From Minisyncoccota bacterium (GTDB taxonomy: Bacteria; Patescibacteriota; Minisyncoccia; Phycocordibacterales; PALSA-1337), in the NCBI GenBank assembly GCA_036170235.1, contig JAVHOW010000016.1, forward strand, positions 5,511 to 69,510: a stretch of DNA of 64,000 bases, in the 5' to 3' direction. The notes beneath the pieces are model-generated. The model saw only the letters and a program-made list of their open reading frames with translations. It was not told the origin of the DNA and did not search any database. The position numbers and the translations under genes are program-made. Of this stretch, positions 1,972 to 32,690 are shown one piece after another (position 1 is the first letter of the stretch; each line of letters opens with the position of its first letter).

Positions 1972-2557
1972 TTGGTTATTATCAGCATTTATGGTAGGTA
2001 TATTTATATTCCTGTATCTTTTGCTTACCAACGCCAATAGTACTACACAAACTATCCAAGTTGCTGTGCAAACTACCGCATTAGCACAAAAATATACACA
2101 GATCAAAAAAGAGATTGTGACAACATTTCCAGTTCGTCTCATAATTCCTACAATCAGTGTTGATGCGGAGGTTGAGAGTGTGGGACTTACAATCGAAGGA
2201 GCTATGGACGCTCCAAAAGGTCCTCAACATGTGGGGTGGTTAAATATCAGTCCTAATCCTGGAGATAATGGAAATTCCGTCATTGATGGACATCGTGGTT
2301 GGAAAAATAATATCTCGGCAGTTTTTGATCGTCTGCATGAATTACGTATAGGAGATCAAATATATGTAAAAGATAATAATGAAGTTTCTACTTTATTTAT
2401 AGTTCGGAAAATTAGAACCTATGCCCAAGGAGAGGATGCTGAAGAAGTTTTTAGAGCAAGCACCGGGGTGCATCTCAATCTGATTACTTGTGATGGTAAT
2501 TGGGATGTTAGTAAAAAAAGTTATACCAAACGGCTGGTTGTGTTTGCTGATAGATAA
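1952..2557 (+). CDS. Sortase family transpeptidase.
   Basis: N-terminal TM helix, catalytic His in IDGHRGW, and the TLXTC motif as LNLITCDG. It lies immediately downstream of two sorting-signal proteins. The start is ambiguous among 1925, 1952 and 1991. Confidence 0.8.
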   Translation: MSSTKNSWLLSAFMVGIFIFLYLLLTNANSTTQTIQVAVQTTALAQKYTQIKKEIVTTFPVRLIIPTISVDAEVESVGLTIEGAMDAPKGPQHVGWLNISPNPGDNGNSVIDGHRGWKNNISAVFDRLHELRIGDQIYVKDNNEVSTLFIVRKIRTYAQGEDAEEVFRASTGVHLNLITCDGNWDVSKKSYTKRLVVFADR

Positions 2558-2736
2558 ATTAGCATGTCAAAAAAATAAGAGTAAGCGAATTATGCTAGTT
2601 GGTTATATAAGTTCACATTACTAATAAATACGCTGTAATATCTTTGTCCTTGGAACGGCAGATATTATGAGGGTAGTAAATGGCAGGTCGAGCGTTTATA
2701 TTTTACCAACTACATTAATTATAATTATAAAATACT

Positions 2737-3402
2737 ATGACTAATAACATAAGTTTTTCGAAAGTTTCTTCTAGTGTGCTTCTTGGGGTGGGTTTACTAA
2801 TTATGACCGTGCTAGTTATGGCGGCACCTTCATCCGCTAAGGCAGATACATTGTATCGCCAACTTCAAGTTGGTATGTCAGGATCAGACGTAGGTTCACT
2901 TCAAACATTTCTCGCGCAAGATAGGACTTTATATCCACAAGGATTGGTGACAAATTACTTCGGTTTTCTTACAAAGTCAGCCGTTGCAAACTTCCAATCA
3001 CGTAATGGTATTCCTGCAGTCGGTCGCGTTGGACCAGCTACGCTTCCAGTTCTGAATGCTCAGATGGCAGGCGGGATTAGTAGTGGTGGAGATATCTATG
3101 CTCCAGAAATCTACAGTGTCAATACTGGCGTAAGCAATAATTCAGCCACGGTTTCTTGGGCAACGAATGAGCCTGCTCGTGGTGTTATGTATTACAGTAA
3201 TACTCCGCTCATGGCTTCTGAAACTCTAACGGCTGTTACTATTAGTGGTTCTACTGCTTTATCTGACTCAACGCTTCGTTCTTCACAAAGCATTGGTATC
3301 TCTGGATTGCAGTCGAATACGACATACTACTACATGGCCTATTCTACGGACGCTACAGGCAATGTTAGTGTGACATGGCCAGCAACATTCCATACTAACT
3401 AG
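2737..3402 (+). CDS. Secreted protein with a peptidoglycan-binding (PG_binding_1-like) domain followed by a fibronectin type III-like domain.
   Basis: Signal peptide present. LQTFLAQ...YFGFLTKSAVANFQSRNGIPAVGRVGPAT is PG-binding-like. SATVSWATNEPARGVMYY...NTTYYYMAYSTDATGN is FN3-like. Confidence 0.65.
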   Translation: MTNNISFSKVSSSVLLGVGLLIMTVLVMAAPSSAKADTLYRQLQVGMSGSDVGSLQTFLAQDRTLYPQGLVTNYFGFLTKSAVANFQSRNGIPAVGRVGPATLPVLNAQMAGGISSGGDIYAPEIYSVNTGVSNNSATVSWATNEPARGVMYYSNTPLMASETLTAVTISGSTALSDSTLRSSQSIGISGLQSNTTYYYMAYSTDATGNVSVTWPATFHTN

Positions 3403-3430
3403 TCGCTAGTAGTGTGAAAATGAGTGAACA

Positions 3431-3463
3431 AAAAAATCACCGTTTATGACGGTGATTTTTTTG
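3431..3463. terminator. Rho-independent terminator hairpin.
   Basis: aaaaaatcaccgtttatgacggtgattttttt. GC-containing stem followed by a T-run, between convergent genes. Confidence 0.6.
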
Positions 3464-3530
3464 TTGTGCCGGCTGGGACAATGTTTGGAACTTTTTTAGC
3501 TTGTAATATGGCTAAATAAGAAATACCTAG

Positions 3531-4073
3531 TCAAAAACTCATCTCGTACCAGTTTAGTTTATATATATCTTGAATCAATATTCTTTCACCCGTTGCCCAT
3601 GTCCTGTTCTTTTCCAGTCCAAGAAGCCCAATAGCTTTTCTAACACTCATTTCGCTTGAACCTTCAATTTCAAGAAACGCCGGCATCCCGGGGTATTGAT
3701 CTATGTCAAACGTCCAATCCTTTAATGAGAATGTTGTACGAATTTTTTCTTGATGTGCATACTTCTCGAGCCCAATTTCTTGGAATAAATCTGATAACTG
3801 TTCTGGTGTAGCAATGTTAAAGTTGATTTCTTTATGTTTTCTAACACCACCTGTAATGTTTGATTTCGCTTTCCATGTGACCTCATGCTTTCCTTCAGAA
3901 TTTGATCTTATCCGTAGAAACCAAAGATCCTCGCCTTCCTTCGTACCAATTGGTCTATACCAATCAACTATTAAGGTAGTTTTCTGTATCTTTTTTGCCT
4001 TCAATAAAATAAGTGACTTAATAATTTTTTTCTCATCAATATCCAGCACTTTTGTTTCGATTTCGAATGCCAT
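3531..4073 (-). CDS. CYTH domain protein (class IV adenylate cyclase / triphosphatase-like).
   Basis: N-terminal EIETK (ExExK) motif and the size are typical of CYTH/CyaB. Confidence 0.65.
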   Translation of the reverse strand: MAFEIETKVLDIDEKKIIKSLILLKAKKIQKTTLIVDWYRPIGTKEGEDLWFLRIRSNSEGKHEVTWKAKSNITGGVRKHKEINFNIATPEQLSDLFQEIGLEKYAHQEKIRTTFSLKDWTFDIDQYPGMPAFLEIEGSSEMSVRKAIGLLGLEKNRTWATGERILIQDIYKLNWYEMSF

Positions 4074-4095
4074 AAAAGTTTAGTTGATTAAAGAA

Positions 4096-4494
4096 TTATT
4101 TTCTTGCTGTCAATTCAATCTCTTCTTTTAGGAGGTCGAATTTTACTATGAATTTATCGAAGAAACCTTTTTGTCCTGCTAGTCCATAAGGTACAATATT
4201 TCCTCCAACTGAAGGCATAAATCCACCCTTAATATCGTATGATATATTACCGACTTTCAACGTAACTGGATGGACATAATACAAAGAAACTTTTCCTCCT
4301 ACACCAAACGCTTCTTTAATTTCACTGTTACTTCTATTTATACCAATATCTTCCCCAATTTCTGAGTCAAAAAAGCAGTGATCAGCACCGGAATCAACCA
4401 ATACTTCATAATCGGTAAACTTACCTTTATTTATTAGTTGCACTGATATAACAGGACGCAAAGCGTCCCCATATGCTTTATACTTGAACTTCAT
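4096..4494 (-). CDS. Retropepsin-like (clan AA) aspartic protease.
   Basis: VLVDSGADHCFFD contains the D-S/T-G-A active-site signature at ~130 aa. The start overlaps the upstream gene stop by ATGA. Confidence 0.7.
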   Translation of the reverse strand: MKFKYKAYGDALRPVISVQLINKGKFTDYEVLVDSGADHCFFDSEIGEDIGINRSNSEIKEAFGVGGKVSLYYVHPVTLKVGNISYDIKGGFMPSVGGNIVPYGLAGQKGFFDKFIVKFDLLKEEIELTARK

Positions 4495-4694
4495 AATAAG
4501 GCACCGCCAATAAAAGCTGATAAATTTGAAGGCATACGTGTAAAAATAGGGTGAGGATGACCATTCTTCAAGGCGCGGGCACGTGCTTCTTTCAATGTTT
4601 TACCGTATCCTACCACAGTTATTTCGTCTTTGAGTAAAGCTACCCAAAGTCCTTTATATTTTTTGTAGATTTGAGTCCAGTTGATTGCTGACAT
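4491..4694 (-). CDS. Small protein (DUF5678-like) cotranscribed with the aspartic protease.
   Basis: A 67-aa ORF with a 4-nt overlap with the protease gene. The KGLWVAL...VVGYGKTLKEARARA pattern is present. Confidence 0.5.
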   Translation of the reverse strand: MSAINWTQIYKKYKGLWVALLKDEITVVGYGKTLKEARARALKNGHPHPIFTRMPSNLSAFIGGALL

Positions 4695-4718
4695 ATCATA
4701 ATTTTAGCAACAAAAAGT

Positions 4719-4740
4719 ACTTCGTCAATATTGACGAAGT
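4719..4740. promoter_or_regulatory. Perfect 22-bp palindrome ACTTCGTCAATATTGACGAAGT upstream of the minus-strand three-gene operon. Candidate operator/promoter.
   Basis: Seen directly in the sequence, 25 nt upstream of the first gene start at 4694 on the minus strand. It contains TTGACG. Confidence 0.4.
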
Positions 4741-4935
4741 TATTCTCCAGTACTCTAATAAAGTTTTTGGTGCCCGGGGTGCCTAGTAGGTCAATCTGCT
4801 GATTGAGGAATCTTTCCTTACAGGAACTGTACAGGCTTCACATTTTTTCGAATTCGACAAGCTCATTCTCAAAAATATGTTCAGCCTTTTCGATTCCCAC
4901 ACGTGAGTCGCGCAGGCGACTCACTCCCGAGCCAC

Positions 4936-4966
4936 AAAAAAATCCGCAAAGAAGCGGATTTTTTTC
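4936..4966. terminator. Hairpin plus T-run terminator downstream of tRNA-Leu (minus strand).
   Basis: aaaaaaatccgcaaagaagcggattttttt. Confidence 0.55.
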
Positions 4967-4968
4967 TG

Positions 4969-5052
4969 TGCCCGGGGTGGGAATCGAACCCACACAGCCT
5001 TTCGGCTACAAAATTTTAAGTCTTGCGTGTATACCAATTTCACCACCCGGGC
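4969..5052 (-). tRNA. tRNA-Leu (anticodon UAA), type II with long variable arm.
   Basis: Cloverleaf folded by eye. Acceptor GCCCGGG/CCCGGGC, anticodon loop CUUAAAA, long variable arm GCCGAAAGGCU, T-loop GGTTCGATTCC. CCA is not encoded. Confidence 0.8.
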
Positions 5053-5154
5053 GGGTTAGTTATAAGTTTACAATTATCAGTCATTAATTACTATTCAAAG
5101 CGCACGGTGTTTTGACTTTTGACTAATAACTAATAATTGCAAACTAATAACTTG

Positions 5155-5227
5155 AGGCCACGGCGAGAATCGAACTCGCGTATAGCTCTTTTGCAGAGAG
5201 CCGAATTACCACTTTTCTACGTGGCCA
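5155..5227 (-). tRNA. tRNA-Cys (anticodon GCA).
   Basis: Acceptor GGCCACG/CGTGGCC, anticodon stem-loop GCTCT-CTGCAAA-AGAGC, T-arm GCGAGTTCGATTCTCGC. Confidence 0.8.
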
Positions 5228-5276
5228 CCTCACTATACTAGCACGTTACTTTACAGACTTTAAGGACTTTATGACT

Positions 5277-5603
5277 TTACAGACTCTTCTCGATTTCGTC
5301 TATCTTTTGCCTGTTTTTCTCACCGATATCGATTGCGACTTCAAAGAATGGAATGCGTCCAATACGAGATTTTTCCATGACATACTGACGAAAATCGGTA
5401 AGCTGACGATGGGCGAATTCGAGTGCGGATGCTTCAGCGTTTTCAGGTAGAACTGTCATCAGAATGCGCGCCTTGCCACCTCTACTGAATATTTCAACAC
5501 CTGTAATCGTGATCAATGATTGCCTGTTTGACTCGCGTGAAAAATACTCGGCAGCGAGCTCGCGAATCATTTCTTTTAGTTTGTCGTCTTTTTGAGCGGT
5601 CAT
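5277..5603 (-). CDS. rbfA: Ribosome-binding factor A.
   Basis: 108 aa, adjacent to infB as in the canonical nusA-infB-rbfA context. RbfA-like sequence. Confidence 0.8.
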   Translation of the reverse strand: MTAQKDDKLKEMIRELAAEYFSRESNRQSLITITGVEIFSRGGKARILMTVLPENAEASALEFAHRQLTDFRQYVMEKSRIGRIPFFEVAIDIGEKNRQKIDEIEKSL

Positions 5604-5616
5604 AAAATATATAATA

Positions 5617-7170
5617 TTAAACCTTCTCCACCGTCCTTATCGCTTCTATTCTATCTCCTGGCGCGACTTCAACTTTGGCATCTAATAACATACCAAACTC
5701 GAATCCTTCACGGACTTCATCCGTAGTTTTCTTTGCCTGCTGGAGTCCGCGTATTTTACCACGACCAATCTCGGCCTCACGACGCATGATACGTACTTCA
5801 TTTCCAGTAAAAATAGAGCCAGTTTCAACTTTGCCACCAACTACTTGCTTATCTTTTTCTTTTGAGAATAAAGCCATGATTTTGGCGCGGCCGGTCATTT
5901 CCTCGACATATTCTTTTGGAACTTTTGCCATGAGCGCGTCTTTGACATATTGCGTGAGTTCGTAAATTATACTGAAGTTTTTGACCGAAAGAGGAATCGC
6001 CGAACGTTCAATCATACTTTCAGCGCCTTTTTCCGGTGCGGCGTTGAAACCAATCAGAAGAATAGTTGGATCGCCGAGCGCTGTCTTCACATCATTTTCA
6101 TTTATGTCACCAATTCCTTCAGAGACAATTTTTAACTGGACTTTGTCATGTGTAACTTTTGCCAATTCATGCTTGACGCCATCGAGACTACCTATGACGT
6201 CGGCTTTAATAATGATTGGGACAATAACAATTGCCGGCTCTTCTTTTCCTGTCTTAGTTTTTTCGGTGATAGTAGAAACAGTTCTCATTTCATGTTCGTA
6301 TGCTTCTACCATTTTCTCCGCCCCTTTTTTGCTTGTTGTAGTCACAAAATCAATTCCACATGCCGGCATAGTATTCCAACCGAGAATTTTGATCGGCATT
6401 GCGGCAGTAGCAATCTCCACTTTTTCTCCTTTGAAATTTTCAATGAAACGAACTGGCGTGAATGCGTTGCCGGCAACCACAAATTCTCCTAGTTTTAGCG
6501 AACCATTTTTCAGAAGTAATGTCGCGGAAATACCTTTGCGCGTATCAAGTGTTGACTCAATGACACTGCCGGTTGCATTCAAACCTAAGTCAGCTTTTAG
6601 GTCAGCCAATTCTGTTACAAGCAGGAGCATGTCGAGTAGTTCAGGAACACCTTTGCCAGTCACTGCCGAAACTTCAACGCAAGGAACATCGCCACCCCAA
6701 CCTTCGACGTATATTTCATTTTCACCGAGACTTTGTTTGGCGCGTTCAATGTTCGCGTTCGGTTTGTCGATCTTGGTGATAGCAACGATGTAAGGGATTT
6801 TGGAATTTTTAATAATTTTGTAAGCTTCAACGGTCTGTGGTTTTACTCCATCTTCGGCAGATACGGCAAGAATTGCGACATCAGCAACCTGCGCGCCACG
6901 TTCGCGGATACCGCAGAAGGCTTCGTGACCAGGCGTGTCCAAGAAAGTCAGCATAGTTTTTTTGCCTTCAGGTGAAGTGTGTTCAACTTGGTACGCTCCC
7001 ATGTGCTGGGTTATACCGCCAGCCTCGCCAGCAACAATGTTGGTTTTGCGGATATAGTCGAGCAAAGTCGATTTGCCATGGTCAATATGCCCCATGACTA
7101 CAATCACAGGAGGACGCTCTGTATGCGAGGCCGTGACGATCAGGTTTTTATGATGTTTGGTAGGCATGGT
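5617..7170 (-). CDS. infB: Translation initiation factor IF-2, short form lacking the long N-terminal region.
   Basis: G domain GHIDHGKST, DTPGHEAF, NKID. Likely start is MPTKHH. The track ORF extends to 7242. Confidence 0.9.
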   Translation of the reverse strand, partial: TMPTKHHKNLIVTASHTERPPVIVVMGHIDHGKSTLLDYIRKTNIVAGEAGGITQHMGAYQVEHTSPEGKKTMLTFLDTPGHEAFCGIRERGAQVADVAILAVSAEDGVKPQTVEAYKIIKNSKIPYIVAITKIDKPNANIERAKQSLGENEIYVEGWGGDVPCVEVSAVTGKGVPELLDMLLLVTELADLKADLGLNATGSVIESTLDTRKGISATLLLKNGSLKLGEFVVAGNAFTPVRFIENFKGEKVEIATAAMPIKILGWNTMPACGIDFVTTTSKKGAEKMVEAYEHEMRTVSTITEKTKTGKEEPAIVIVPIIIKADVIGSLDGVKHELAKVTHDKVQLKIVSEGIGDINENDVKTALGDPTILLIGFNAAPEKGAESMIERSAIPLSVKNFSIIYELTQYVKDALMAKVPKEYVEEMTGRAKIMALFSKEKDKQVVGGKVETGSIFTGNEVRIMRREAEIGRGKIRGLQQAKKTTDEVREGFEFGMLLDAKVEVAPGDRIEAIRTVEKV

Positions 7171-7351
7171 AGTAGTAAATCGGCGCGATGCGCGCTTGCA
7201 CATTAGAGAATAGAGTGTAGCAGAAATGATGAAGTTTGACAATCACTATTTCTATATGGTGATGTCATGAGTCATTATGTATTTTATTTCTATCTACAAG
7301 GATTTATTGTCTAAAAATGTTCCGCGCGCTATAGTAAACAAATCTAACTTT

Positions 7352-9604
7352 ATGCCTAAAACACCATTCACCCTCGCAACGCCATTCGAGCCTGCTGGCG
7401 ACCAGCCGAAGGCAATTTCCGCATTGACGGATGGTCTCGCTAAAGGTTTTGACCGCCAGACATTGCTTGGGGTGACTGGGTCCGGTAAAACCTTCACCGC
7501 TGCAAATGTCATAGCTCAATATGGCAAACCTACGCTCATAATTGCTCACAACAAAACATTGGCTGCCCAACTCGCGCAAGAGTATCGAGAATTTTTTCCA
7601 AATAACGCCGTGCATTATTTTGTTTCTTATTATGACTACTATCAGCCAGAAGCATATATTCCGTCGAGTGATACTTATATCGAAAAAGAGGCGATGATAA
7701 ATGAAGAGATCGAACGTCTGCGCCACGCTTCGACGCAAGCACTTTTGACGCGCAAGGATGTCATCATTGTGGCGTCAGTTTCCTGTATTTATGGTTTGGG
7801 CAGTCCAGAAGAATATGAAAAAGTTAATTTGAAATTGAAAGTCGGCATGGAACTTTCGCGCGCGGAACTTATTCGCAAATTGATTGACATCCATTTCGAG
7901 CGCACGACTGCTGATCTTACGTCTGGTCAATTTCGCGCTATTGGAAACACTGTGGAAATCATGCCAGTGAACGAGAAGACTATTTATCGGTTGGAATACG
8001 GAGGTGACACCTCCGGAGGTAGCACCTCGATTGCCACTATTACTGAACTGGATCCTGTTTCAAGATCGGTTCGTAATGGTAGCTTAGGGACTTCCTCGCC
8101 AGCATTACTTGAACCACGGACTATTTTCATTTTTCCAGCAAAGCATTTCATTTCTAGTGATGAACAAAGTGCGCGTGCTTACAAAACTATTCAAGCAGAA
8201 TTGACAGATCGACTCAAGGTTCTGGAGAAATCAGGAAAATTGTTGGAAGCAGAGCGTTTGAAGCGTCGGGTCAAATACGATCTTTCTATGATTAAAGAAA
8301 TTGGTTACACAAACGGTATCGAAAATTACTCTCGTCATTTTTCTGGAAAAATGCCAGGCGAGCCACCGGATTCTCTGCTTTCATATTTTCCATCGACTAC
8401 GCTCGGGACAGGTCCGAATGCCAAGAAAGTTCCTGATTTTCTGACTATTATTGATGAGTCTCACGTTACAATTCCACAATTGAATGGAATGTATGCTGGA
8501 GATTTTTCGCGTAAGGACACATTAGTCGAACACGGTTTCAGATTACCATCTGCAAAAGATAATAGGCCGTTAAAGTTTGCTGAATTTCTGGAGCGCGTTG
8601 GTCCGATAATTTATACTTCGGCAACGCCGGGAAAATATGAGGCAGAGACAAACAGCCAGGTTGTTGAGCAAGTCATCCGTCCGACGGGTCTCGTCGACCC
8701 GGTCGTGGAGATACGACCTATAAGGGAGTCGTCACATGTTCGTACGGAGCGACTTTCGGAGCGAGCGAAGGCGAGTGAGAAGGAGGTGTCGGCTGAGCAC
8801 AGCCGAACACCGTTCGCGGAGGGCGAACATGTGACGACTCCCTACATGGGTCAAATCTTTGACTTCATCGCCGAAGCTGAAAAAACTATTGCAAAAGGCG
8901 ACCGCGTGCTCGCTACCACATTAACCAAAAAAATGGCCGAAGACCTGTCCGAATTCCTTAAGGAAAAAAATATCAAAGCCTCCTATTTGCACAGTGACGT
9001 CAAGACTATCGAGCGCATAAATATTCTGACTGATTTTCGCAAAGGGAAGTACGATATTCTGGTTGGCGTTAACTTGCTTCGTGAAGGTCTGGATCTGCCA
9101 GAAGTTTCTCTCATAGGCATTCTCGACGCTGACAAAGAAGGTTTCCTCCGTTCCGAAACCGCGCTAATTCAAACTATCGGTCGCGCCGCTCGTAACGCCG
9201 CTGGTAAAGTGATTCTCTACGCCGACAATCTCACTGGTTCAATGGATCGCGCTATCAAGGAGACTAACCGTCGTCGCGCTATCCAGGTGGCATATAATAC
9301 CAAACATGGCATTACCCCGCAGACTATTATCAAAGCCATCCACGACATCACTGATCAGTTGCGCACCAAACATGACAAAGCCGTCAACGAGCTCGTCAAG
9401 ATTGATGAAGAACTGGCTCGCACCAATCCGAAGTTGTTGATGAAACAAAAGCAAGCGGCCATGGAGGAGGCGGTCAAGATGTTGGATTTCGAGACCGCGG
9501 CGTTGGTGAGGGATGAACTTATTGCGATTGAAGAGAAGTGGGGGAGGGAGAAAAAAGCGGTGGCGAAGAAGTTGAAGGAGGAGGGGAGGAAAACTAAAAT
9601 CTAG
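7352..9604 (+). CDS. uvrB: Excinuclease ABC subunit B, with two in-frame inserted palindromic elements.
   Basis: PAGDQP, Walker A GSGKT, the helicase motifs and a C-terminal UvrB/UvrC interaction coiled coil. Likely start is MPKTPF. Confidence 0.9.
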   Translation: MPKTPFTLATPFEPAGDQPKAISALTDGLAKGFDRQTLLGVTGSGKTFTAANVIAQYGKPTLIIAHNKTLAAQLAQEYREFFPNNAVHYFVSYYDYYQPEAYIPSSDTYIEKEAMINEEIERLRHASTQALLTRKDVIIVASVSCIYGLGSPEEYEKVNLKLKVGMELSRAELIRKLIDIHFERTTADLTSGQFRAIGNTVEIMPVNEKTIYRLEYGGDTSGGSTSIATITELDPVSRSVRNGSLGTSSPALLEPRTIFIFPAKHFISSDEQSARAYKTIQAELTDRLKVLEKSGKLLEAERLKRRVKYDLSMIKEIGYTNGIENYSRHFSGKMPGEPPDSLLSYFPSTTLGTGPNAKKVPDFLTIIDESHVTIPQLNGMYAGDFSRKDTLVEHGFRLPSAKDNRPLKFAEFLERVGPIIYTSATPGKYEAETNSQVVEQVIRPTGLVDPVVEIRPIRESSHVRTERLSERAKASEKEVSAEHSRTPFAEGEHVTTPYMGQIFDFIAEAEKTIAKGDRVLATTLTKKMAEDLSEFLKEKNIKASYLHSDVKTIERINILTDFRKGKYDILVGVNLLREGLDLPEVSLIGILDADKEGFLRSETALIQTIGRAARNAAGKVILYADNLTGSMDRAIKETNRRRAIQVAYNTKHGITPQTIIKAIHDITDQLRTKHDKAVNELVKIDEELARTNPKLLMKQKQAAMEEAVKMLDFETAALVRDELIAIEEKWGREKKAVAKKLKEEGRKTKI
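8000..8029 (+). repeat. Double mini-hairpin GGAGGTGACACCTCC GGAGGTAGCACCTCG, in-frame inside uvrB, encoding GGDTSGGSTS.
   Basis: Perfect 15-nt palindrome followed by a near-copy. It lies in a 17-aa region that is extra relative to E. coli UvrB, recalled from memory. Confidence 0.55.
8723..8843 (+). repeat. ~121-nt GC-rich palindromic element with 19-20-nt terminal inverted repeats, inserted in-frame in uvrB.
   Basis: TIRs gggagtcgtcacatgttcg / cgaacatgtgacgactccc. The core gactttcggagcgagcgaaggcgagtgagaaggagg... is ~85% identical to a copy in uvrA. It accounts for a ~40-aa insertion between the EVRP and RVLxTTLTK regions of UvrB. Confidence 0.75.
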
Positions 9605-14011: not shown

Positions 14012-16756
14012 ATGTCAGCTATGCGTAAACATAGTCCGGGAACTGGCGAAGAAAAGATCGTTGTGAAGGGCGCGCGGACGCACAACCTCAAGAATATTAC
14101 CGTCGAGATGCCGCGCAACACGATGATCGCCATTACAGGACTGTCTGGTTCTGGAAAATCTTCGTTGGCATTCGATACTATATTTGCCGAAGGGCAACGC
14201 AGGTACGTTGAATCTCTTTCCGCGTATGCACGTCAATTTTTGCACAAAATGCAGAAGCCTGATGTTGATGAGATTTCTGGGCTTTCGCCAGCTATTTCGA
14301 TTGATCAAAAATCACGCTCTAATAATCCACGTTCAACAGTCGCGACAATAACGGAAATTTATGACTATCTACGTATTCTTTTTGCGCGTGTTGGAAAACC
14401 ACATTGTCTGACTTGTGGACGCATCATTCATCGTATTTCTCAAGAAGAAATCTTAAATACTATTTTGCAGACAGTTACTACTCGCGCTACTCAAGCTAAA
14501 AAAGTTTATGGCGTGAATATCAGTGATGCCAAAATTCGTGTTTACGCGCCAGTCGTGGTTGGTCGTAAAGGTGAATACTATCAGATGCTTTATGATTTGC
14601 TTGGTAAAGGTTATGACCGTGTCAGAATTGATGGAAAAATTCAACGCTTGCGTGATCAGATTATTTTAGAGAAAAATAAAAAGCACGATATTGACGTGCT
14701 AGTTGATGAGATTTTCGTTTCTGAATTCAAAGATGCCAAGCAGTCTGGTAATGCGCGTGAGCGTCTGTCGGAGTCCATTGAACGAGCTGTGCATGAGGCG
14801 GAGGGACTGATAAGGATTGAGTATCCGTGGGCGACGGCGACTGGAGTGGGGGGAGGACATGCTCTCGAGACGACTTTCGGACCGAGCGAAGGCGAGGGAG
14901 AAGGAGGCGCCGGCCGAGCACGGACGGACGCCGTTCGTCGAGGGAGCAAGTCCTCCCCCCACTCTGAAGTTGCCAACGTCAACGAAACCCTAATGTCCGT
15001 AAAATTCATGTGTCCATACGACGGTTTTTCATATCCAGAAATTGAGCCACGATTATTTTCATTCAATTCTCCATATGGCGCTTGTGCCGCTTGCAACGGT
15101 CTTGGTACTGAAGGATTATTCGCCGAAACAGTTTGCAAGGTCTGTAACGGTGTTCGTCTGCGTGATGAAGCTTTGCACGTGAAGATTGATGGCAAAAATA
15201 TCGTTAATACCACCTCATTATCTATTGAAAAAGCCATTAAATATTTTAATGAAATAAAATTAACCGACGCTGAAAAAGAAATTTCCAAAGTTGTATTAAA
15301 GGAAATTCAAGCGCGCCTCTCGTTTATGGTAAATGTCGGTATTGAATATCTGACTCTAGACCGCCGTGCCAACACGCTTTCTGGTGGTGAAGCACAGCGC
15401 ATTCGTCTAGCTTCGCAATTGGGATCTGGACTTGTTGGCGCGCTCTATGTGCTCGATGAACCAACTATCGGTTTACATCAACATGACAATGATCGCTTGA
15501 TTCAGACACTTCTTCGTCTACGCGATCTCGGCAACACTATTATCGTTGTTGAACATGATGAAGATACGATGTTCGCTTCTGATTACATTATTGATATTGG
15601 TCCTGGCGCTGGCGTGCATGGTGGAGAAGTAGTTGTATCTGGATATTTGGATGATTTACTTATGGCAAAAAAGAATACCTCAGGTTCACTCACTCTCGCG
15701 TATTTGCGTGGTGAGGAAAAAATTGAGATACCAAAAACTCGTCGTGAACCAAAAGGTAAAATCATGGTTCGAGGTGGAAATGTATTCAATATTAAAAATA
15801 TGGATGTTGACATACCTTTGGGTTGTTTGAATGTTATCACCGGTGTTTCTGGTTCAGGAAAGTCATCATTGATGTATGAAATTTTGCATAGAAATTTAGC
15901 GGCTCGTTTCGAAATGCGCCATCGCAGTAATGAAACAATCAATTGCAAAGAATTCAAAGGCTCTGAATATGTTGGTCGCGTGATTTTGATAGACCAATCT
16001 CCGATCGGTCGGACGCCACGATCCAATCCCGCTACTTACACGGGAGCATGGACTCACGTTCGCGACCTGTTCGCCTCAGAACCAGAATCACGTGCCCGCG
16101 GTTGGGGAGCGGGCAGATTTTCATTCAATCGCCCCGGCGGTCGCTGTGAGGCATGCGAAGGTAATGGTGAGATTGCCGTGGAGATGCACTTTTTGCCAAC
16201 AGTTTATGTTCTTTGTGATGTTTGTAATGGCAAGCGTTTTACCAAAGAAACTCTCGAGATAAAATTTCGCAAGAAAAATATTCATGAAGTGCTGGAACTG
16301 ACGATTGAAGAGGCGATTGAATTTTTCAAAGATATTCCAGCGGTTGAAGATCGTCTGCAAAGTATGATGGATGTTGGTTTGGGTTATGTAAAATTGGGAC
16401 AATCTGCAACAACTTTATCTGGTGGTGAAGCGCAACGCGTGAAGATTTCCTCGGAGTTATATCGCGCGCATTTGCAGAAAACGATTTATTTGCTTGATGA
16501 GCCGACAGTTGGTCTTCACTATGAAGATGTAAAAAAATTGATTGATATTTTGCAAAAATTGGTGGATAAAGGGAATACGGTCGTGGTTATTGAACACAAC
16601 TTGGATCTCGTAAAAAATGCTGACTACGTTATCGATATTGGTCCAGATGGCGGTGAACGTGGTGGTAAAATCGTGGCGAAGGGGACTCCAGAGGATGTTG
16701 CCATGAGCAAGACGAGTTATACTGGAAAATATTTGAAGAAGATGTTGAGGAAGTAG
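14012..16756 (+). CDS. uvrA: Excinuclease ABC subunit A, with an in-frame inserted palindromic element.
   Basis: Two ABC ATPase modules, [14 protein letters not shown] and [10 protein letters not shown]. Zinc fingers CxxC. LSGGEAQR signature twice. Confidence 0.92.
14844..14964 (+). repeat. ~121-nt GC-rich palindromic element with 15-nt terminal inverted repeats, inserted in-frame in uvrA.
   Basis: TIRs gagtggggggaggac / gtcctccccccactc. The core gactttcggaccgagcgaaggcgagggagaaggagg... is homologous to the uvrB copy. It encodes the Gly/Glu/Arg-rich segment [42 protein letters not shown]. Confidence 0.75.
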
Positions 16757-32516: not shown

Positions 32517-32690
32517 TGTGATGGTGATGGCGCAGTGAACTTTGATTTTATGAGCCGAGAACTTGTCTGAGCGGAGTAACGCTCCAAACAAAATGGGAAT
32601 CGCCACTAATCCCTGTAACATTTTGTTTGGAGCGTACGTCGCGAGTCTCGCAGGCGAAATAAAATTAAAGTTCACTGCGCCATCACACAC
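32517..32690. repeat. MITE-like ~170-bp element in the rpsJ-rplC spacer with ~30-bp terminal inverted repeats and nested internal hairpins.
   Basis: 5' arm tgatggcgcagtgaactttgattttat (32525-32551) versus 3' arm ataaaattaaagttcactgcgccatca (32659-32685), with 1 mismatch. Internal stem gctccaaacaaaatg...cattttgtttggagcg. gcgagtctcgc hairpin. Confidence 0.7.

Follow-up and report, generated by a model that had tools for sequence, protein, structure and literature searches.

REPINs are hairpins of ~100 nt with conserved REP arms (with a GTAG or CGTC head) and a variable loop that lie outside genes and are linked to RAYT. GC clusters, double-hairpin elements and byp elements of fungal mitochondria are mobile GC-rich palindromes inserted in protein-coding genes of compact genomes rich in AT; ribosomes skip byp elements, and these do not have to keep a frame. 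Work in E. coli has described template-switch mutagenesis at quasi-palindromes, by which imperfect inverted repeats become perfect and can grow, and integrative elements target the 3' end or the T-loop of tRNA genes. REP sequences have been described as extragenic, RAYT-linked repeats (PMC3733652). Rickettsia palindromic elements (RPEs), to which a preliminary description likened the locus studied here, are short palindromic hairpin repeats that lie in frame in housekeeping genes without a transposase, and each family conserves its peptide (PMC10969869). We analysed a 64,000-nt stretch of a Minisyncoccota bacterium (contig JAVHOW010000016.1; hereafter the window), in which uvrB and uvrA each carry a GC-rich hairpin segment. 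Both segments belong to a family of GC-rich hairpin repeats that is widespread in Patescibacteria and apparently undescribed; no description of these repeats was found in the literature. The reading we favour, and hold to be probable though far from certain, is that they are copies of a selfish hairpin repeat analogous to RPEs, translated as a surface loop and equipped with self-templated arms.

The first copy spans positions 8723-8843 and the second 14844-14964, both on the forward strand and sense to their host genes, uvrB (7277-9604) and uvrA (14012-16756), which are also on the forward strand. The hosts were recognized by NCBIfam matches to UvrB (916 bits, in two stretches that flank the insert) and UvrA (1241 bits, split around the insert), and each copy was delimited by its inverted repeat, its fold and a covariance model. 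A 36-nt core pattern occurs exactly twice in the 64 kb and in none of 100 shuffles. The copies are identical at 61 of 72 core positions (85%) and at 90 of 121 positions over the whole elements; their lengths are 121 and 121-125 nt. The covariance model, built from 16 long-stem family members, found no copies but these two in the window, at 8732-8834 (101.9 bits) and 14853-14955 (110.2 bits), its next match being a terminator hairpin at 19.6 bits. GC content is 0.61 and 0.69 in the copies versus 0.413 in the window. The predicted fold energies are -77.7 kcal/mol for copy 1 (z=-9.3 against shuffles) and -86.8 kcal/mol for copy 2 (z=-8.4), with the forward strand of both folding better than the reverse strand. 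The arms of copy 1 (8723-8742 and 8824-8843) are 20 nt long and 100% complementary; those of copy 2 (14844-14873 and 14935-14964) are 30 nt long and 87% complementary, with the outer 15 bp perfect. The preliminary description had claimed two repeat copies at these positions within the UvrB and UvrA open reading frames (ORFs), with a core of ~85% identity, perfect terminal inverted repeats of 15-20 nt and a GC content far above the background, and all four claims hold.

Inside the closing stem, P1, lie two hairpins. HP1 of copy 1 (8753-8783) is purine-rich and near-invariant in the family, reading CUUUC-GGA-GCGAGC-GAAG-GCGAGU-GA-GAAGG with two possible tandem G.A motifs, and HP2 (8785-8811) has a variable stem, with changes on both sides in all 11 pairs across copies, under a conserved AGCA-type loop. 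The corresponding hairpins of copy 2 lie at 14874-14904 (HP1) and 14906-14932 (HP2), the latter showing compensated differences from orthologous copies in two other contigs (L127, L128). We aligned the same 16 long-stem copies for a consensus, which takes a Y shape made of P1 (19 bp), HP1 and HP2. The consensus of HP1 is CUUUC-GGA-SCGAGC-GAAG-GCGAGN-GA-GAAGG, again with the two possible tandem G.A motifs and with one covarying pair that may be G-U, C-G, G-C or A-U, and in HP2 the stem varies under a conserved AGCA or CAGCAG loop. Twenty-five alignment columns are invariant across the 16 copies, mostly within HP1. Compensated changes occur at 34 of 38 base pairs; paired cells make up 91.9% versus 66.9% in shuffles, and the covariation score of 0.682 was reached by none of 500 shuffles (0.221) and compares with 0.10-0.15 when partners were slid. 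Changes in the variable stems lead almost always from one Watson-Crick pair to another, and none of the 11 HP2 pairs is G-U. This pattern agrees better with templating on DNA than with selection acting on an RNA. By eye, HP1 fits none of the motifs considered for it (K-turn, sarcin-ricin, hammerhead, twister and SRP), in agreement with Rfam. At its gathering threshold, Rfam 15 recognized nothing but tRNAs in the window and in 20 loci, and none of its families matched the element; when copy 1 was scanned permissively, the sole match was a spurious miRNA hairpin, at 23 bits where the cutoff is 49 bits.

Measured against relatives with an empty site, uvrB has gained 35 codons (105 nt net) and uvrA 36 codons (108 nt net), in both genes less than the 121-nt hairpin. 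The in-frame insertion proposed in the preliminary description is thus upheld, at a size slightly smaller than the ~40 residues it had given. The core nucleotides are translated in different frames, as RLSERAKASEKE in uvrB and as another peptide in uvrA, so that the nucleotide sequence is conserved and not the peptide; on this evidence, constraint appears to act on the nucleic acid. Neither inserted peptide matched a family in NCBIfam or Pfam (E<=10 or E<=1). A protein-database search with the concatenated insert peptides gave no scoring match; when the UvrA insert peptide was searched exhaustively, a single weak match came up, to a repetitive protein. The peptides are too short and of too low complexity for such searches to count in-frame copies.

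Orthologue alignment and mapping onto solved structures, both proposed in the preliminary description, place the two inserts at sites that close relatives leave empty. A 93%-identical UvrA (P0121) does not have the element and two others (P0122, P0123) have an orthologous copy; further UvrA orthologues carry a version in another frame in the same loop. The contig of the 93%-identical UvrA (L125) gave no match to the covariance model, and neither did L126 and L129. The insertion hotspot of UvrB lies between the PIRE motif and YxGQIFDFI. Three close UvrBs are empty there (P0008, P0011, P0042), the window, P0024 and P0106 have sense copies and P0004 and L017 antisense copies, all confirmed by the covariance model. 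The solved Geobacillus and Bacillus proteins likewise do not have the segments. Neither observation that the preliminary description had named as refuting its claim was made: these orthologues carry no corresponding segments, and homology between the two copies is clear. For UvrB, the alignment with 6o8g is interrupted at residues 426-428, in the linker immediately ahead of helicase domain 3; for UvrA, that with 2r6f is interrupted between residues 253 and 256, where the UvrB-binding domain ends. An AlphaFold model of the window UvrB, made with 20 close homologues, had a mean pLDDT of 47 and was of low overall quality, so that its low confidence over insert residues 484-523 says nothing specific, and the breaks in the alignments with solved structures were used for placing the inserts.

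The same loops, and a second loop of UvrB, are filled in other orthologues (P0013, P0071, P0106, P0136, P0158) by unrelated repeat-derived peptides (for example PAKAGIQ...RGND and FAKGEKG...EKGGARR), which suggests that several palindromic repeat families may insert in frame in Patescibacteria. On L125, whose uvrA has no element, UvrB (2195-5899) contains a LAGLIDADG intein (1234 aa), so that one housekeeping gene hosts different selfish insertions in sister lineages. The window UvrB (7277-9604) also has ~13 extra residues, SLGTSSPALLEP, at residues ~320-333, which are common only to a few orthologues (P0005, P0013), and a 25-residue N-terminal extension; its start codon may be called too far upstream.

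The outer closing stem appears, from these comparisons, to belong to the insertion site and not to the element. The arms differ in all 18 distinct long-stem copies that were compared for context, arms and orientation, no terminal repeat is conserved between copies, and the left arms of the two window copies are identical at just 11 of 20 positions. In uvrB, the outermost AGGGAG of the left arm (8723-8742) is formed by the host R-E codons of the conserved PIRE motif, as seen in comparison with orthologues and the empty site of L129, and the right arm (8824-8843), the reverse complement of the left, ends in the complement of these codons. At this UvrB site the window has a sense core and L132 and L017 have antisense cores; the core variants differ, yet the arms are homologous. 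In uvrA, the stem of the window copy is 9 bp longer than in the orthologous copies of L127 and L128, through 3 nt added to its left side and 6 nt added to its right, with the new right-hand bases complementing the left flank. Between these three copies P1 and HP2 differ by double, compensated changes. Stem growth and compensated double changes lead us to infer an intrastrand synthesis templated by the hairpin, which would preserve the perfect pairing of the arms and also lengthen them into the flank. The preliminary description had argued from the copy-specific terminal repeats that the hairpin is maintained as a whole, and the compensated changes between orthologous copies support this.

The family was sampled by a scan of metagenomes with an exact 20-base HP1 pattern, which returned at least 120 stretches; all metagenome family counts given here, including those of the 18 long-stem copies, are among the matches listed. 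Most of these matches are short-stem, intergenic forms. A 21-base core pattern scanned against 185,579 species representatives gave three true copies in two Patescibacteria genomes, and the HP1 pattern had no match in a viral contig collection. The UvrA and UvrB proteins closest to those of the window carry the source names Patescibacteria, Paceibacterota or Taylorbacteria; a look-up of the exact window UvrB sequence returned no record. Weaker members, at 27-45 bits with the covariance model, share contigs with strong copies (L090 542-641, forward; L104 6762-6851, reverse; L099 12163-12274, forward), so diverged copies missed by the exact-pattern scans are likely to be common.

Two of the 18 long-stem copies are intergenic, and the other 16 fall within long ORFs. 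One ORF (that of L036, with the frame LARLRSFRES, a fourth frame) looks spurious, which leaves 15 copies in identified genes. By eye, their translations were named as DnaE (two sites), SecA (two sites), UvrA, UvrB, RecG, MetRS and MnmA. The host ORF is open in all 15 (the two window copies and 13 others), nine of which are sense and six antisense. At least three reading frames are used, giving one sense peptide in six copies, LSERAKASEKE in three and the antisense SHSPSLAPK in six. GC skew at long-stem copies is positive in 8 and negative in 10, and thus shows no orientation bias. Flipping the element in silico left the ORF open in 10 of 16 copies, both window copies among them, a result that is suggestive without being decisive. 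In a four-hairpin variant, two copies stand inverted around cargo genes, with no transposase: L034 has them at both contig ends, around MazG-like, NUDIX and MBL-fold genes, and L071 at 116-137 and 3588-3609, around a LexA-methyltransferase fusion and a putative restriction enzyme.

These features resemble RPEs in several respects: a length of ~100-150 bp, a long hairpin, many copies, in-frame positions in unrelated housekeeping genes of a reduced genome and no associated transposase. There are also differences. The hosts belong to Patescibacteria, not Rickettsia; RPE families conserve a peptide, whereas this core occurs in at least three frames and both orientations and encodes unrelated peptides; the centre is conserved here and the outer stem is site-specific; and the inserted peptides matched no RPE-type protein family, although the presence of RPE models in the NCBIfam release is unconfirmed. 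The analogy drawn in the preliminary description is therefore sound, but membership in an RPE family is not, given the host phylum and the lack of a conserved peptide. Miniature inverted-repeat transposable elements, or MITEs, are likewise small, non-coding, present in multiple copies, bounded by inverted termini and both intergenic and genic. In contrast to MITEs, the terminal inverted repeats are not conserved between copies, no target-site duplication is seen at the uvrA and uvrB sites, and no parent insertion sequence or recurrent transposase was found near the copies (within 4 kb of the intergenic ones). Identity with an RPE or a classical MITE does not fit the non-conserved peptide and the absence of a conserved terminal repeat and of a target-site duplication; it is also at odds with an outer stem that would belong to the insertion site, overlap host codons and be lengthened by templated copying.

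Other known systems share single features. REP sequences and REPINs are repeated hairpins thought to act as single-stranded DNA; here, however, the centre is conserved and the arms are variable, and most long-stem copies lie inside genes. Palindrome-associated elements derived from IS200/IS605 have strand-specific hairpins and an insertion orientation that follows the direction of replication; here the HP1 G-T pair would distinguish one strand, yet GC skew divides the long-stem copies 8 to 10 and no TnpA was found nearby. Byp-type elements are organellar; here, the preserved frame and the lack of stops in all copies within identified genes argue for ordinary translation instead. Ribosomal bypassing was rejected, as no matching take-off and landing codons flank the hairpins. 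Template switching at quasi-palindromes resembles the 9-bp extension of the uvrA stem and the Watson-Crick-only covariation; it is, however, a mutational process and not an element, and gives no account of the core's arrival at new sites. An intein was also rejected, since neither Pfam nor NCBIfam found a Hint or intein domain in the inserts and 35-36 residues are too short.

According to our favoured reading, the element would be non-autonomous and consist of a ~85-nt core (HP1 and HP2) closed by a long stem. One copy would have landed in the UvrB linker before helicase domain 3 and the other in the turn that ends the UvrB-binding domain of UvrA. The window copies may persist because the net insert is a multiple of three, contains no stop in the host frame and occupies a site that tolerates extra residues. 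They would be transcribed and translated with the gene into a loop of 35-36 residues rich in Gly, Glu, Ser, Arg and Ala. The outer stem would not be a transposon end: it overlaps host codons, differs by site and would be lengthened through intrastrand hairpin-templated DNA synthesis, similar to the template switching described for quasi-palindromes.

Several points weigh against this reading. HP1 hardly varies, and in 7 of 16 copies it contains a G-U pair, a pattern that hints at a strand-specific role as RNA or single-stranded DNA and is not explained by pure junk. Part of this conservation may reflect the sample, which is skewed towards conserved HP1 because retrieval demanded an exact match to 20-21 bases of it. 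The motif ACATG.TC in the inner arm is common to both window copies, and the inner 8-10 bp of the arm may therefore travel with the element. One arm boundary is shared by three copies at the UvrB site, which could represent a single old insertion followed by inversion or replacement of the core, instead of arms made from target sequence. The double changes that keep pairing in the uvrA orthologues are equally expected from selection for function. Comparison of empty and filled sites revealed no direct repeat indicative of target-site duplication at uvrA or uvrB, and clustering of neighbouring genes found no recurrent transposase, recombinase, integrase or reverse transcriptase within 4 kb of intergenic copies. 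With neither a target-site duplication nor a conserved terminal repeat, mobility is deduced from the distribution of copies and the empty sites only.

The same module of HP1 and HP2 occurs in ORF copies and in intergenic copies, and many of the latter accompany tRNA genes. Of 62 intergenic copies with enough upstream sequence, 32 start <300 nt after a tRNA gene on the same strand, with eleven tRNA species involved. In 24 of these 32, the 3' end of the tRNA is repeated directly after the core; in the copies read base by base, this repeat extends from T-loop position 56 to CCA. The reverse complement of the tRNA 3' end, 8-19 nt long, precedes the core as a left arm. The tRNA-linked copies have the same orientation as the tRNA: GC skew is positive in 53 and negative in 23 copies of kinds B and C and divides 12 to 0 in kind D. 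In L087 (560-1040, reverse strand), and also in L106, L053 and L089, a tRNA gene is followed by a tandem array that repeats every ~160 nt; the array unit comprises the 3' end of the tRNA, a hairpin resembling a terminator, 8 nt that are the reverse complement of the T-loop region, and the conserved core. In the window, a possible truncated relative lies at 4885-4968 on the reverse strand (region 4885-5052; 17.3 bits, with an inverted repeat), where tRNA-Leu(taa) and a terminator are followed by the reverse complement of the tRNA 3' end with a small hairpin inside and then by GGGAATCGAAAAGGC, with no core after it. Compared by eye with tRNA-linked copies, this segment looks like a truncated copy of that kind.

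The tRNA arrangement agrees in part with each of three models: site-specific integration into the T-loop, a gene for a small RNA linked to the tRNA, and self-templating in repeated rounds. Similarity to tRNA-targeting integrative elements lies in the direct duplicate of the tRNA 3' end that starts in the T-loop of short-stem relatives, and in the possibility of tandem arrays. On the other hand, the unit measures just ~100-160 nt, no integrase was found to recur nearby, and the reverse-complement tRNA end before the core is absent from integrase att sites. We tentatively consider a variant of our reading, which has a real but clearly smaller chance of being right: only the structured core would be mobile, the inverted repeats would be acquired at each site by snap-back, hairpin-templated copying of the target, and the tRNA-bracketed core would be either the natural home of the element or a new class of tRNA-linked small RNA, from which the ORF copies derive.

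A related but unlikely explanation compares the family with short interspersed nuclear elements (SINEs). Here the tRNA-linked short-stem form would be the real gene, for a small structured RNA, and the ORF copies would be dead copies made through an RNA or single-stranded DNA intermediate. The structured 3' end would snap back and prime copying of the adjacent sequence, for example by target-primed reverse transcription or a repair polymerase. The module common to ORF and intergenic copies agrees with this, as do the position of 32 of 62 intergenic copies after a same-strand tRNA, the repeated 3' end in 24 of these 32 with its reverse complement before the core, and the orientation of tRNA-linked copies (53 versus 23 in kinds B and C, 12 to 0 in kind D). 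The G-U pair of HP1 would mark one functional strand, the absence of an orientation preference in ORFs is what dead copies would show, and snap-back priming would account for perfect Watson-Crick arms unique to each site. Reverse transcriptases of diversity-generating retroelements are known from this radiation. However, no reverse transcriptase recurs near the copies, and lengthening of the arms after insertion requires no RNA intermediate. Complete Patescibacteria genomes are reported to lack group II introns (PMC13011429), so that one obvious source of reverse transcriptase would be missing.

Slightly less likely again is that the segments are retained for a function, as a cis-acting signal in mRNA or DNA (a ribosome pause, an RNase III entry or a protein-binding site) or as a useful protein loop. 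Such a function would be consistent with the near-invariance of HP1, with the pairing kept by double changes among the uvrA copies of the window, L127 and L128, with stems of at least 20 bp, long enough to serve as double-stranded RNA substrates, and with hosts that are mostly genes of DNA replication and repair or other core machinery. This host bias is, however, expected in any case, since long housekeeping genes make up most of a small genome. The element is missing from very close relatives (P0121, 93% identical; P0008), and the peptide varies with frame and orientation, which leaves no conserved role at the protein level. Six of the 15 copies in identified genes are antisense and two further copies are intergenic, so that no consistent role in mRNA is possible.

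Removal of the segment from the mRNA, either as a very small intron or by excision of the stem and ligation, is improbable. The stem would bring both junctions together, and a perfect Watson-Crick stem folds in transcripts of either orientation; moreover, Patescibacteria are unusually rich in group I introns according to the same report (PMC13011429). Yet all copies in identified genes preserve the host frame and contain no stop codon in it, and nothing but translation across the element would require this. In addition, no Rfam intron or ribozyme matched, no junction sequence is conserved, and ~121 nt is far below the size of introns of group I or II. Chance similarity or an artefact of assembly or binning, conceivable in a metagenome-assembled contig, is refuted by the shuffles (0 of 100), the covariance scores (102-110 bits), the orthologous copies in independent assemblies of other samples (L127, L128) and the copies in many unrelated metagenomes.

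Elsewhere in the window, a near-perfect hairpin of 163 nt lies at 32524-32686, between rpsJ (S10) and rplC (L3). It has outer arms of 28 nt, a nested 17-bp stem and a predicted energy of -91 kcal/mol (z=-12.8). No Rfam family matched it and it occurs in none of the fetched loci; it could be either a different palindromic element or a leader structure.

Most documented cases of in-frame palindromic repeats in essential genes come from Rickettsia. With a second system in Patescibacteria, unrelated and far more widespread, it would be seen that reduced genomes have tolerated such insertions more than once, and that these lengthen core proteins such as DnaE, SecA, UvrA, UvrB, RecG and MetRS. Elements of this kind inflate and diversify proteins that serve as phylogenetic markers, can break assemblies and may pass for lineage-specific domains. 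With a conserved core and a site-specific, self-templated, growing stem, the family would offer a natural system for the origin and expansion of palindromes. If only the core is mobile, its insertion would be of a mode that leaves an inverted rather than a direct target duplication, and the tRNA-linked relatives may reveal a new small RNA or a new way of targeting tRNA genes.

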